A stretch of 28,099 nt of DNA, taken from NCBI RefSeq assembly GCF_003334815.1, contig NZ_QOWO01000046.1; one strand, written 5' to 3'. Source of the DNA: Escherichia coli. Lineage in GTDB: Bacteria; Pseudomonadota; Gammaproteobacteria; Enterobacterales; Enterobacteriaceae. The notes beneath the pieces are model-generated. The model had not been told where the DNA came from. It searched no databases and saw nothing but the letters and a program-made list of their open reading frames with translations. The position numbers were made by a program, and so were the translations under genes. Below are positions 1 through 6,640 of this stretch, in pieces. The stretch's first letter is position 1. Every line of letters begins with the position of its first letter.

Positions 1-95
1 ACCATTTGATCATATGACAAGATGTGTATCCACCTTAACTTAATGATTTTTACCAAAATCATTAGGGGATTCATCAGTGCGTCATATTCAACTCA

Positions 96-536
96 TTGCG
101 TGCACTAGGCTATGATAAAGAAAATTCACTTAAGCGTGTCATTAATAGTTTTAATTCTGAACTCATGGGAGAAATGTCGAATAATAATATAAAAGTTCAT
201 TTAAATGAACCAGAGATAATATTTTTACATGCCGATCTTCAGCAATACTTAAGCCAAAGTTGCGGTGCATTTGTGTGCATGGCAGCCCAGGAAGTGATTG
301 AACAAAGGGAAAGCAATTCTGACAGCGCCCCCTATACGTTATTAAAAAACTATGCTGACAGATTTAAAAAATATTCAGCAGAAGAGCAGTACGAAATTGA
401 TTTTCAACATCGACTGGCAAACAGAAATTGTTATTTAGATAAATATGGCGATGCAAATATCAATCATTATTATAGAAACTTAGAAATAAAACACTCACAA
501 CCCAAAAATAGAGCATCCGGCAAAAGAGTGAGTTAA
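96..536 (+). pseudogene. elaD: 3' remnant of a CE-clan (Ulp1/SseL-like) cysteine protease gene, probably truncated elaD; only about the C-terminal 146 codons are present
   Basis: Translation contains His/Asp (IIFLHAD) followed by [10 protein letters not shown], the His-Asp...Gln-Cys arrangement of CE-clan deubiquitinase-like proteases. All three plus-strand frames hit stop codons within bases 1-65 (frame of the ORF: TGA 15-17, TAA 36-38, TAG 63-65), so the catalytic-domain ORF cannot continue upstream. First in-frame start candidate is TTG at 96. Position immediately before yfbK matches the remembered elaD-yfbK neighbourhood. Confidence 0.5.
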
Positions 537-606
537 CATCATTGTTAATTAATTCGACCAGTCAGCAAATATGCTGACTGGTCGAACATAGTTTGCTAAA
601 CAGTCA

Positions 607-2334
607 TCACTGACTGATGTCAGTCACACCATCCGCCAGTTCAATCAGGCGAATAAATTCCGCCCTGTAACCCTGTGGATCTTCCCCTTTTGCCTGCTGA
701 GCCCACTGTTTGATCTGCTGCCAGGAGGTATTGTTCAGGTATTCAGAACCGCGTAACTTTTGCCCATATGCAGCTACTGCTGCGCGAAAACGCATATCTT
801 CAGAGGGCGCGTTTATTGTTGGCCCCAGCGGGAATTCAACTAACTGACTTTCTTTTCCCTGCGGGTATTTCCAGCGAATTTTTAACCAGGCCAGTTCTTT
901 CGTTTTGTCCGATTTCGCTAATTTGTTATCCGGGGCATAGCGTAACTTATCAATTGATGCTTTTTGCCCGTTCAGCGTTAATTCGAATAACAACGTTATA
1001 TGTTTGCCTGCGCCTATATCCCCTGCATCAACGTTGTCGTTATTAAAATGTTCCACCCGAAGTTGGCGCTTTTCATAACCAATCTGACGGTATTCCGTTA
1101 CCCACGCGGGGTTAAACTCAATTTGCGCTTTGACATCTTTTGCTACGGTAATCAACATCTGCCGCATTTCACTATTCAATACTTTCTGCGCTTCAGAGAG
1201 GGTATCAATGTAGCTGTAGTTGCCGTTACCAACATCGGCAATTCGCACCATCATTGCCTCGTTGTAATTGCTATTCCCCACGCCAAACGTCGACAGAGTA
1301 ACACCAGACTCCCGCTGTTTTTTGACCATTGATTCAATCGATTTTGGATCGTCAATGCCAACGTTAAAGTCACCGTCAGTGGCTAATAAAATGCGATTGA
1401 TGCCGCCCTTAATAAACCCCTTCGTCGCCTGCTGATAAGCCAGTTCCAGCCCGGCACCGCCATTGGTACTGCCTTCGGCATCCAGCGAATCAATTGCGGC
1501 ATTAATTTCCGCCTTATGACTCCCGGAGATAGAAGGCAATGCAATACGGGAGTCGCCAGCGTAGGTCACGATGGCAATGTTATCCTGCTCACGAAGTTCT
1601 TTGACCAATAATTTCAACGAAGACTGGATAAGTGGCAAACGTTCATCAGAAATCATTGAACCAGAAGTGTCGATAAGAAAGACCAGATTAGAAGCTGGTA
1701 ACTCTTCACTTTTGCGATCTTTCGCCAGGATATCAACTTTCAGCAATGTTCGCTGTTCATTCCATGGTGCAGGTGCCAATTCGTAGCGCATAGCGAAAGG
1801 TATTGGCTTAGAGGCCGGAATAGATTGTTTGTCTTTGATATCCCAATCAGACGGGAAATAATTGACTATCTCCTCCACCCGCACAGCGTCTGGCGGAGGT
1901 AACAGCCCTTGATTGAGGAAACGCCTTACATTCGCATAACTGCCAGTGTCAACGTCAAGACTAAACGTCGCCAACGGATTTTGCGCTACCTGCTTAACCG
2001 GATTATCATCGAACTGCTGGTAGCGAGCGGTTCCTGGATTTGCGATATGTGTAGCTTTTGCTTTAGCCGCTCTTGCAAATGTTGGCGCTTCCTGCAATCG
2101 CCCCTGTAAAGCCTGTTTGTCTGAATATTGTTGCACTTCTTGCTGGGCCAAGGCTTTCGCGGCGGCGGCGCTTTGCTCAGCCTCTTTTATTGCAGCTTGC
2201 TGCGCGGCAAGCACTTGCTGCTCTGTGGGAGTACTGGGTTGTTGTTGCTGACTTTCCTTATTCTCAGGTTGCGGCCCACATCCTGACAAAATCAAACTAC
2301 TCATAAGCAACATGATTATATTTTTATTTCGCAT
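607..2334 (-). CDS. yfbK: von Willebrand factor type A (vWA) domain lipoprotein, 575 aa
   Basis: N-terminal signal peptide with lipobox (LILSGC), Gln/Ala-rich low-complexity linker, then a vWA domain with MIDAS motif (LVFLIDTSGSM). Full-length ORF. Confidence 0.9.
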   Translation of the reverse strand: MRNKNIIMLLMSSLILSGCGPQPENKESQQQQPSTPTEQQVLAAQQAAIKEAEQSAAAAKALAQQEVQQYSDKQALQGRLQEAPTFARAAKAKATHIANPGTARYQQFDDNPVKQVAQNPLATFSLDVDTGSYANVRRFLNQGLLPPPDAVRVEEIVNYFPSDWDIKDKQSIPASKPIPFAMRYELAPAPWNEQRTLLKVDILAKDRKSEELPASNLVFLIDTSGSMISDERLPLIQSSLKLLVKELREQDNIAIVTYAGDSRIALPSISGSHKAEINAAIDSLDAEGSTNGGAGLELAYQQATKGFIKGGINRILLATDGDFNVGIDDPKSIESMVKKQRESGVTLSTFGVGNSNYNEAMMVRIADVGNGNYSYIDTLSEAQKVLNSEMRQMLITVAKDVKAQIEFNPAWVTEYRQIGYEKRQLRVEHFNNDNVDAGDIGAGKHITLLFELTLNGQKASIDKLRYAPDNKLAKSDKTKELAWLKIRWKYPQGKESQLVEFPLGPTINAPSEDMRFRAAVAAYGQKLRGSEYLNNTSWQQIKQWAQQAKGEDPQGYRAEFIRLIELADGVTDISQ

Positions 2335-2471
2335 ATAAAATCCTTTTAAATAAACTCAGGCACCAGACATAAAATATACTCTTTGTATAATCCTGCTAAT
2401 CTTAATAAAATACAATATCGAAACCCATAGCAAATAATGATTCAACAACGCAACCCATTAATAATTTGCAT

Positions 2472-5246: not shown

Positions 5247-5669
5247 ATGACACCTTTAGAACGCATTACCCAACTTGTTAATATCAATGGTGATGTTAAT
5301 AATCCTGATACTCCTCGTCCATTGTTATCTCTTGAGGATTTTTTTATTGACAATAATATCCATGGTTCAATATGTTGCAATGTGATTCCAGAACAATCTC
5401 CGCAAGCTATCTATCACCATTTTCTGAAAATACGTGAGCGTAACAATGTTAGTGATGTTTTGGTAGAAATTACGATGTTCGATGACCCAGACTGGCCCTT
5501 TAGTGAAAGTATTTTAGTTATCACCACTGCTTCACCAGAAGAAGTTCAGAGCTGGTTTGTAGAAGAAATTGCCCCTGATGAGTGCTGGGAAGGATGGTCA
5601 GAAGATACGGAGCATGGATGGGTTGAAGTCCCTGTGGGTATGCATCCGGTTACTTGTTGGTGGGATTAA
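5247..5669 (+). CDS. yfbO: Uncharacterised small acidic, Trp-rich protein, 140 aa from the ATG at 5247 (158 aa if the in-frame upstream ATG at 5193 is used)
   Basis: ORF with AGGGA Shine-Dalgarno at 5235-5239 ahead of the ATG at 5247. C-terminus ECWEGWSEDTEHGWVEVPVGMHPVTCWWD. No catalytic motifs. Confidence 0.7.
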   Translation: MTPLERITQLVNINGDVNNPDTPRPLLSLEDFFIDNNIHGSICCNVIPEQSPQAIYHHFLKIRERNNVSDVLVEITMFDDPDWPFSESILVITTASPEEVQSWFVEEIAPDECWEGWSEDTEHGWVEVPVGMHPVTCWWD

Positions 5670-5727
5670 AACATTTATATAAACAGATAAGCGGATGTTT
5701 ACATAAATTTTTATGTGAAGGAACATG

Positions 5728-6576
5728 ATGAAACTTATTCCTCGCAGTAGTGATATTTCACCTGGCATTGATGGAATTTGCCCGGGGCCTTTTCCTCCGA
5801 ACGGATTTACCGTACTTACAGATGCAGCATATGGTAACGGAGACTGTTTCGGTTTGTACTGGCCTATTGGTCAGGAGCATAAACTACCTATAGTGTGCGA
5901 AACGTACCATGACGAATGGCGAATCGTACCTGCCTTTTCCAGCATTAAGAAGTTCGAAGAATGGCTGGAAGTGAATGATGATGATCCCCATGAAAATGGC
6001 ATCAGCATCGAAGATCAAGACTTTGCAGCAAATCTCTTCCGTGTTGCTCGGAAATGTCTTTCAACGGGAAGGCTTGATGACGCACTGCCACTGTTACAGC
6101 GAGCAACAGAACAATTGCCTGAAGTCAGCGAATATTGGTTAGCACTGGCAATCCAGTATCGCCGATGTAAAAAAACAGAAGCTGCAGCACAGGCTGCGCT
6201 TAATGCTTATCTTGGCAATTGGGCATTTGGTGTTCCTGACAATAAAGTCATTCATTTGCTGTCACAGGCCGCAGATGTCCCGAATTTCCAGGATGATCCT
6301 GTGATTCAGTGCATTAAAGAACAAGGATTAGATCTTAGCTTTGGAGGAACAAAGGAAAATAATAATTACCCCTTGATGCAGATGTGTGTTGATACTTATT
6401 TTGCGCAGAGAAAACCGCTTCAGGCATTAACCCTGTTACATAATTATGCCTGGATAATGTCCAGTGAAACGACTGCATTTCAGGAACGCTATGATTTTAA
6501 TATCGATGAATGGCGGGCAAAATTCAGGCAGTTATGTTTAGAGTATTTTGGCGATAGTCGTACACAGTTCACTTAA
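5728..6576 (+). CDS. yfbP: Uncharacterised protein, 282 aa (283 if the adjacent ATG at 5725 is used)
   Basis: ORF beginning with a tandem ATG-ATG preceded by GAAGGA; ends 36 bp before the shared terminator hairpin. No signal peptide or catalytic motif recognised. Confidence 0.75.
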   Translation: MKLIPRSSDISPGIDGICPGPFPPNGFTVLTDAAYGNGDCFGLYWPIGQEHKLPIVCETYHDEWRIVPAFSSIKKFEEWLEVNDDDPHENGISIEDQDFAANLFRVARKCLSTGRLDDALPLLQRATEQLPEVSEYWLALAIQYRRCKKTEAAAQAALNAYLGNWAFGVPDNKVIHLLSQAADVPNFQDDPVIQCIKEQGLDLSFGGTKENNNYPLMQMCVDTYFAQRKPLQALTLLHNYAWIMSSETTAFQERYDFNIDEWRAKFRQLCLEYFGDSRTQFT

Positions 6577-6611
6577 CGCTCTGCGTCTATCTACTATCCC
6601 TTCTTTTTCAG

Positions 6612-6640
6612 AAAAACCGCCGAGCATGTCGGCGGCTTTC
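6612..6640. terminator. Bidirectional rho-independent terminator shared by yfbP (+) and the nuo operon (-)
   Basis: Perfect stem CCGCCGA (6617-6623) / TCGGCGG (6629-6635) with loop GCATG. Flanked by AAAAA (6612-6616), which gives a TTTTTC tract on the minus strand, and by CTTTC on the plus strand. Confidence 0.7.

Follow-up and report, generated by a model that had tools for sequence, protein, structure and literature searches.

The nuo operon of Escherichia coli is bordered, beyond nuoN, by an AT-rich block of poorly characterised genes (elaD and yfbK to yfbP), and the question that this locus raises is whether these genes arrived together as one acquired module or make up a more composite structure. 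We addressed it in a stretch of 28,099 nucleotides from E. coli (NCBI RefSeq assembly GCF_003334815.1, contig NZ_QOWO01000046.1), hereafter called the window, of which positions 78-6640 are 100% identical to E. coli K-12-type chromosomes. A first-pass annotation of the window had read its first 6.6 kb as a horizontally acquired or fast-evolving accessory module inserted beside a core operon; the gene identities that it gave agree with the RefSeq K-12 annotation of the identical DNA. One part of that view stands: the block is accessory, variable and fast-diverging, its parts being present in 17 to 99% of strains. The other part, a single module inserted beside nuo, does not, given the unlike distributions of the genes, their homologues at the same locus elsewhere, and the lack of mobility signatures. 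Positions 78-6659 probably represent, in the form found in K-12, an old accessory locus that is AT-rich and hypervariable, and a mosaic rather than one module. Conserved blocks flank it, the nuo operon on one side and rbn-elaA-elaB on the other.

Distribution of the genes among E. coli strains

Presence was counted in 5,426 complete E. coli genomes, with at least 80% of each query required. The elaD fragment is present in 4193 of them (77%), full-length yfbK in 2514 (46%), full-length yfbL in 3293 (61%) and yfbM in 5356 (99%), and the 2.56-kb segment carrying yfbN, yfbO and yfbP (4051-6609) in 946 (17%), every place being chromosomal. The yfbK alleles fall into two classes (at least 99%, and 90-95% identity), unlike nuoN and nuoM, which stay at 98-100% identity among E. 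coli. About 1,550 genomes keep merely some 40 bp of the yfbK 3' end; some strains have lost yfbK together with part of yfbL, and where yfbL is not full length it is partly deleted or frameshifted. The B2 strain clone D i14 is without elaD.

Any match to the 2.56-kb segment is found in 1015 genomes, 987 of them at 99% identity or more; most strains have just 66 bp between the stop codon of yfbM and nuoN. The left junction falls directly after the yfbM stop (4050/4051) and the right one, by alignment, at about 6610, where the conserved nuo terminator begins; this hairpin is kept in strains with and without yfbN-yfbP, and some 17 bp occupy the place of the 2.56 kb in most E. coli. Neither terminal direct nor terminal inverted repeats were found around 4051-6609. 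There is no tRNA gene in the window, and no integrase, tRNA or insertion sequence (IS) was found at the borders of the segment. All open reading frames (ORFs) of the block are accounted for by elaD and yfbK to yfbP, and its only IS is an unrelated IS10 in elaD. The marks of a mobile genomic island (integrase or recombinase, tRNA/tmRNA or att site, flanking direct repeats) are thus missing, and those of an accessory islet (variable presence at a fixed position between conserved genes, atypical composition) are present.

A variant of the segment with 80-90% identity occurs in 24 genomes. In strain ETEC6335 the order is yfbM, an intact 190-amino-acid gene assigned to the SMI1/KNR4 family by the Prokaryotic Genome Annotation Pipeline (PGAP), yfbN' (79% DNA identity), yfbO' (93%) and nuoN; yfbP is absent. 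Positions 4068-4324 of the window align with the 3' third of this 190-amino-acid gene, with an 11-bp deletion in the DNA alignment, and tblastn matches them in three frames with internal stops to the ETEC6335 protein (E = 9e-20) and to an E. fergusonii protein (E = 6e-22). With three frames, internal stops and a deletion, 4068-4324 is therefore a pseudogene remnant, and the K-12 arrangement is derived by decay from a fuller haplotype.

The nuoN junction in other genera

The junction was surveyed by a scan for NuoN with one genome per species, which returned 79 loci; the enterobacterial loci were annotated by tblastn. In three Citrobacter species, Pseudocitrobacter, Leclercia and Enterobacter cloacae, nuoN is followed after 0.5-1.2 kb by rbn-elaA-elaB; in Citrobacter one gene alone, coding for a CheW-receiver (cheV-like) protein, stands between nuoN and rbn, and in Enterobacter and Leclercia, too, nothing but a cheV-like gene intervenes. 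In Pantoea and Erwinia nuoN adjoins elaA, and in Pectobacterium and Brenneria it adjoins elaB. The block is thus absent from Citrobacter, Pseudocitrobacter, Leclercia, Enterobacter, Pantoea, Erwinia and Pectobacterium, and is far from being conserved in all relatives that carry nuo.

Three other loci hold parts of it at the same place. Superficieibacter electus has homologues of YfbN (49% amino-acid identity) and YfbP (62%), a 177-amino-acid protein, homologues of YfbL (62%) and YfbK (66%), the cheV-like gene and rbn; another enterobacterial assembly (L008) has nuoN, YfbN (46%), proteins of 173 and 85 amino acids, YfbL, YfbK, the cheV-like gene and rbn; and E. fergusonii has nuoN, YfbN (71%), the SMI1-like protein (84%), YfbM (97%), YfbK (66%), the cheV-like gene and rbn. 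Since divergent yfbK, yfbL, yfbN and yfbP stand at this same locus in other enterobacteria, the locus is old, and yfbK, yfbL and yfbN are long-standing occupants of the slot. E. coli YfbK is equally far (66%) from its E. fergusonii and Superficieibacter homologues, yet the NuoN proteins of E. coli and E. fergusonii do not differ at all (100% identity); the history of YfbK is therefore incongruent with vertical descent. In Superficieibacter and L008 yfbK and yfbL have a host-like G+C content of 0.53-0.56, and the small genes are AT-rich in every host (0.30-0.48).

The 173-177-amino-acid protein (Superficieibacter locus L014, 7965-8498; L008, 8886-9407) is 72% identical between the two genomes at 34-39% G+C. 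It adjoins yfbL on the nuoN side, roughly at the place of yfbM in Escherichia, has no detectable similarity to YfbM, and looks like another cassette swap.

The left end of the locus differs as well. A cheV-like gene stands in the place of elaD in E. fergusonii, Superficieibacter and Citrobacter, adjoining rbn (L010, Citrobacter, 11517-12680; L089, E. fergusonii, 12984-13967; L014, 11496-12497), and in E. coli elaD lies exactly there; an effector-like deubiquitinase has therefore taken the place of a chemotaxis gene. Divergence extends into the left flank: elaA shows 82.7% DNA identity between K-12 and clone D i14 (L004), and between E. coli and E. fergusonii rbn is 76% identical in DNA and 84% in protein and ElaA 88%, against 96-97% for the nuo genes. 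The whole nuoN-menF interval looks like a recombination hotspot.

Base composition and the step at nuoN

The G+C content is 0.422 in positions 1-6640 and 0.554 in 6641-21700 (nuoN-nuoA), and in non-overlapping windows of 300 bp it is 0.422 +/- 0.059 for the block (n=22) against 0.555 +/- 0.027 for nuo (n=50; Mann-Whitney p = 4e-11). Division of 1-12000 into two segments puts the best change point at base 6665, at the stop codon of nuoN, which ends at 6660. The stretches that had been singled out by eye as AT-rich are indeed the minima of the profile (0.279 in 2335-2470, 0.308 in 5040-5250 and 0.380 in 4050-4320), with 0.384 for the yfbO and 0.434 for the yfbP coding sequence. G+C at third codon positions (GC3) tells the same: 0.30 in the elaD fragment, 0.47 in yfbK, 0.43 in yfbL, 0.45 in yfbM, 0.36 in yfbN, 0.31 in yfbO and 0.37 in yfbP, compared to 0.57-0.72 in the nuo genes and 0.49-0.57 in lrhA, alaA, yfbR and yfbS. 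The profile of G+C and codon usage is thus anything but flat, and the first-pass annotation was right that the first 6.6 kb are AT-richer than nuo.

A mosaic of strata

The locus is a mosaic of at least three strata that differ in distribution and age. The first is elaD, the effector-like deubiquitinase that in E. coli holds the place of the cheV-like gene. The second is the divergent envelope pair yfbK (a lipoprotein with a von Willebrand factor A, vWA, domain) and yfbL (an M28 peptidase), old at this place and represented by deeply diverged or replaced alleles. The third comprises genes for small, signal-less cytoplasmic proteins, namely yfbM, the dead SMI1/KNR4-like gene, yfbN, yfbO and yfbP, and turns over one cassette at a time, the last 2.56 kb being left in about 17% of E. 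coli. Cassettes would come and go by recombination through the conserved flanks and by deletion, with no element-encoded machinery; for the empty state, in which 66 bp separate yfbM from nuoN, deletion is plausibly at least as likely as an ancestral condition. The AT-richness may stem from a foreign or cassette origin combined with weak selection for expression. Silencing of the H-NS type is presumed, and our literature search on H-NS binding at elaD or yfbK found nothing usable.

Some qualifications apply. The contrast in base composition is inflated, nuo (55.4%) itself lying above the G+C of the whole window (50.6%), although the G+C of the block also falls short of that in the window's right-hand part (0.478; p = 0.003). 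The survey returned no locus from Salmonella, Shigella or Klebsiella, and whether yfbN-yfbP were deleted or inserted is judged from outgroups only.

Two other histories have to be weighed. A single horizontal acquisition, by the E. coli lineage, of the whole elaD/yfbK-yfbP block as one module beside nuoN would account for a G+C and GC3 uniformly under those of nuo, for the sharp step at nuoN, and for the absence of the block in Citrobacter, Enterobacter, Leclercia, Pantoea and Pectobacterium. We hold it to be very unlikely: the gene-by-gene distributions within E. coli, from 17% to 99%, largely refute it, the genes differ in G+C and in their nearest relatives, E. fergusonii and Superficieibacter carry parts of the block, 46-71% identical, in the corresponding place, and no mobility genes or repeats were found. 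The opposite view dispenses with horizontal transfer altogether and takes the genes as native and vertically inherited, AT-rich through weak expression and relaxed selection, and in the course of being lost. The age of yfbK, yfbL and yfbN at the locus speaks for it, as do the small excess divergence of YfbK and YfbL between E. coli and Superficieibacter (62-66%, compared to 71-74% for Rbn and ElaA) and the signs of decay, in K-12 itself and as frameshifts or deletions in many strains. Yet between E. coli and E. fergusonii YfbK is 66% identical where NuoN reaches 100% and YfbM 97%; the nearest kin of YfbO are in marine and soil metagenomes and on Bacillota plasmids, and kin of YfbP are in Bacteroidota and Betaproteobacteria; and alternative cassettes occupy the same slot. 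Distant relatives, alternative cassettes and the incongruence of YfbK together call for transfer or allelic replacement, and purely vertical descent is unlikely.

The small proteins and their relatives

YfbM is identical to the protein of PDB entry 1RYL, and PF08974 is found on its E. fergusonii orthologue. The N-terminus of YfbN has the three-helix fold of UBA domains, by which ubiquitin binding is not implied; the Pfam scan of the protein gave a weak UBA_4 match alone. The family is small: a word search gave 19 clusters, and 239 representative clusters were found among 1.84 billion proteins. Foldseek returned full-length look-alikes in Leminorella and in many Bacteroidota, plus a DUF4375 protein; the C-terminal domain appears similar in its helical fold to DMP19, the DNA-mimic protein of Neisseria (PDB 3WUR; DUF4375), a link that searches at the sequence level do not confirm. 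A 4,090-amino-acid protein (P0302) with 29 stretches matching the YfbN profile was set aside as a spurious repetitive match, being a leucine-rich-repeat protein of the RNI type.

Family PF27222 is precomputed on the K-12 YfbO cluster and on 84 of the 85 homologues listed; our local Pfam library gave no match to YfbO. The longest yfbO ORF starts at 5193 (158 amino acids), and all 58 aligned homologues, as well as the PGAP start, begin at the equivalent of 5247 (MTPLERI...), so that the 18 codons ahead of it probably remain untranslated. The nearest relatives of YfbO, 46-62% identical, come from environmental metagenomes of marine and soil origin, with others on Bacillota plasmids. Those of YfbP are in Leminorella (65%) and Superficieibacter (62%), followed at 35-49% by proteins of Bacteroidota and Betaproteobacteria, including Janthinobacterium; Pfam detects only TPR repeats in YfbP. 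Its C-terminal half to two-thirds is 47% identical to a 219-amino-acid TPR protein on conjugative plasmids. Some 26 large conjugative plasmids carry this protein; apart from one, they come from Providencia, Proteus or Morganella. In each plasmid record listed tblastn matched two places, and on Providencia rettgeri plasmid pCHS4.1-3 (L102, 5902-6561) it adjoins an ars operon. NCBIfam and PHROGs scans gave nothing above noise for YfbM, YfbN, YfbO and YfbP, and PADLOC-DB 2.0 (5,027 models) had no family at E <= 0.1 for the six block proteins.

A possible role in immunity

Of immediate interest is the company kept by the relatives of YfbO and YfbP. A YfbO homologue with 56% identity, in a 7.8-Mb genome (L092), comes directly after three genes of its own strand, one for an LHH toxin and two for SUKH/SMI1_KNR4 immunity proteins; a Tox-REase-5 gene is nearby. 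In a Woeseiaceae genome YfbO is the last in a series of small genes on one strand, two of them DUF1963 genes, and on a Priestia plasmid a YfbO-like gene shares its strand with an array of other small genes (DUF6678, two DUF4304) that adjoins a recombinase. A YfbP relative in Tenacibaculum (L098) starts 10 bp past the gene of an 896-amino-acid protein and heads a same-strand array of ten genes, SMI1_KNR4 among them; in another assembly YfbP follows genes for 196 amino acids, SMI1_KNR4, 104 and 168 amino acids; and in Leminorella the YfbP homologue heads an array of small genes without assigned function. The Tenacibaculum protein (3300-5990 in L098) has no Pfam or NCBIfam match and is a candidate uncharacterised polymorphic toxin.

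With these neighbourhoods and the possibly DMP19-like domain of YfbN in mind we tentatively suggest that the third stratum may be a toxin-less, polyimmunity-like set of orphan immunity proteins, whose role would be to bind the toxin domains that rival bacteria deliver and to neutralise them. Going further, yfbM, the SMI1/KNR4-like gene, yfbN, yfbO and yfbP might conceivably be a previously unrecognised enterobacterial polyimmunity locus adding three new immunity families: PF27222/YfbO, the N-terminal domain plus TPR of YfbP, and the UBA-UBA-DMP19-like YfbN, which could act as a DNA mimic against nuclease toxins. This we offer as a speculative possibility. The small genes would then shield commensal E. 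coli from the contact-dependent toxins of competitors.

Much weighs against the immunity hypothesis. Of the contexts examined, two of YfbO, one of YfbP and both of distant YfbN homologues were solitary, among housekeeping neighbours, or uninformative. In K-12 the yfbM-yfbP genes are not co-oriented, yfbN being on the opposite strand, and are separated by gaps of 102, 272, 208 and 58 bp; no toxin gene was found near them. YfbM, YfbN, YfbO and YfbP are all absent from the published immunity catalogue, and the paper on the polymorphic-toxin catalogue makes no mention of DUF1877/YfbM, DUF1963 or DMP19. The only gene of a recognised immunity family in the K-12 locus would be the dead SMI1/KNR4-like remnant, a weak match: the assignment comes from PGAP and a partial Pfam match (E 0.004 over 30 residues), and against bona fide SUKH proteins hhalign aligned an N-terminal motif alone, with a probability of 3%, so that we do not claim SUKH membership. 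YfbO and YfbP are tied to immunity arrays by neighbourhood only.

Published phenotypes point in other directions as well. Disruptions of yfbO and yfbL are reported, in a single unreviewed preprint (10.1101/2025.09.29.679331), to confer resistance specific to phage N4, with sensitivity restored by complementation, which suggests another role than immunity. From this, and from several homologues that stand alone among housekeeping genes, it could be argued that the small genes and yfbL are ordinary factors of host physiology or the envelope, e.g., of a pathway that N4 needs. We regard this as a real but doubtful possibility: 83% of E. coli lack yfbO, the block can be deleted, YfbO is cytoplasmic and has no fold relative suggesting an enzyme, and the N4 result of that one study is compatible with an immunity origin, the phenotype of yfbO then being a side effect of a binding protein. 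The reduced-genome strain DGF-298 lacks everything from elaB to yfbP (PMC10652928), and the interval is therefore dispensable. A strain-variable, AT-rich cassette of three genes at a fixed chromosomal slot also calls to mind an anti-phage defence system in a defence hotspot, and yfbN was among the hits when blockers of the retron toxin RcaT were screened for (10.1101/2020.06.22.160242). Still, none of the PADLOC models matched, no enzymatic, NTPase or nuclease domain was found, loss of yfbO reportedly raises resistance to N4 rather than lowering it, and yfbN, yfbO and yfbP were not found travelling together elsewhere; a defence system is very improbable here. Deletion of yfbN has also been reported to raise the yield of recombinant protein.

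Comparison with known systems

Strain-specific chromosomal islets are well known in E. coli, as in the 'K-islands' of comparisons between K-12 and O157, and represent a flexible gene pool at fixed hotspots. The present locus resembles them in its low G+C and GC3, its presence in only part of the strains, at one fixed position with conserved genes on either side, the alternative contents held by other strains, and its dispensability. It differs in its small size (2.6-6.6 kb), in having no integrase, tRNA or IS at its borders, and in sharing parts with other genera at the same place, so that it is not simply lineage-specific. The overall pattern is familiar E. coli genome flexibility in annotated genes, low-G+C strain-specific genes at fixed hotspots being already known.

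The second comparison is with the polyimmunity loci of polymorphic toxin systems, whose features were described by Zhang et al. 2012 (PMC3482391). In common with these, the locus has small cytoplasmic proteins of unrelated families, no toxin and a strain-variable content; it holds a putatively SUKH-like gene, and relatives of YfbO and YfbP occur in SUKH arrays, in one case after an LHH toxin. In contrast to them, the K-12 genes are neither co-oriented nor tightly spaced, there is no adjacent recombinase, none of the block families figures in the published catalogue, and neutralisation is hypothetical here. As for the ElaD/SseL deubiquitinases, the fragment at 78-536 is the annotated E. coli member, but it is disrupted by IS10 and follows its own distribution, and we found no evidence of a functional tie to the yfb genes.

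The value added is modest: a pseudogene call, a stratification, and a testable immunity hypothesis for yfbN, yfbO and yfbP, with LHH nucleases as the candidate type of partner toxin for YfbO. Annotation should deal with the parts of the block separately, and the 'intergenic' 4068-4324 of K-12 is a dead gene. If the immunity hypothesis is true, the catalogue of immunity proteins gains families and the persistence of such genes in a minority of commensal strains finds a rationale.

Features of the block and its flanks

Features of the block and its borders, with window coordinates, strand and basis of assignment
Feature	Position	Strand	Description	Basis
IS10/ISVsa5 (IS4-family) end	1-77		Terminal 77 bases; the window opens inside the element	
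elaD, 3' part	78-536	+	ElaD/SseL-family deubiquitinase, cut by IS10	RefSeq annotation of identical K-12 DNA
Hairpin	553-586		15-bp stem between convergent elaD and yfbK; bidirectional terminator-like	
yfbK	607-2334	-	Predicted lipoprotein with vWF_A / VWA / YfbK_C domains	Annotation, Pfam domains of homologues, lipobox in translation
yfbK-yfbL intergenic region	2335-2471		Divergent; 27.9% G+C	
yfbL	2472-3443	+	Membrane-anchored M28-family metallopeptidase	Annotation, NCBIfam and Pfam M28 matches
yfbM	3546-4049	+	DUF1877 protein; sole near-core gene of the block	
Strain-variable segment	4051-6609		2,559 bp: gene remnant, yfbN, yfbO, yfbP	
Decayed gene remnant	4068-4324	+	Last ~88 codons of a 190-amino-acid gene named SMI1/KNR4 family by PGAP	
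yfbN	4322-5038	-	238 amino acids, all-helical; two N-terminal UBA-like three-helix domains, C-terminal helical domain, possibly DMP19/DUF4375-like	
yfbN-yfbO intergenic region	5039-5246		Divergent; ~31% G+C	
yfbO	5247-5669	+	140 amino acids; compact alpha/beta fold, no close solved relative	Pfam PF27222 (YfbO family)
yfbP	5728-6576	+	282 amino acids; N-terminal domain, then TPR repeats	Pfam TPR_16 and TPR_14
G+C-rich hairpin	6608-6643		Inner stem 6617-6635; nuo operon terminator, shared with yfbP; right border of variable segment	
nuoN	6660-8117	-	First gene of the conserved G+C-rich nuo operon; flank	Annotation, GC3

At the left edge, the first 77 bases match IS ends on many plasmids and chromosomes at 100%, and K-12 genomes match from base 78 on. 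The IS10 end interrupts elaD near codon 251; the gene is thus truncated because IS10/ISVsa5 inserted in it, and not by decay. The IS10::elaD junction is absent from all 5,426 genomes searched, and the IS10 or Tn10 insertion appears, from these matches, to be private to a K-12-like strain.

The hairpin between elaD and yfbK has a folding free energy of -29.1 kcal/mol on both strands (z about -8.6). The terminator that had been placed at 6617-6635 exists, as the inner stem of the larger structure at the end of nuo (-20.6 and -22.1 kcal/mol on the two strands; z about -5). When 1-7000 was scanned for promoters and terminators, the counts did not exceed those in shuffled sequence, and these scans were not used.

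The sole Rfam match in the window is the nuoG RNA motif RF01748 (16785-16827, minus strand; 50.3 bits, E 5e-8). It lies a short way upstream of where nuoG is encoded; the block itself has no RNA feature. Further AT-rich stretches (36-44% G+C) are found upstream of nuoA (21700-22400) and between an lrhA-like ORF (22315-23253) and the next gene (23250-24170); they are as AT-rich as the yfb block but non-coding, and presumably regulatory.

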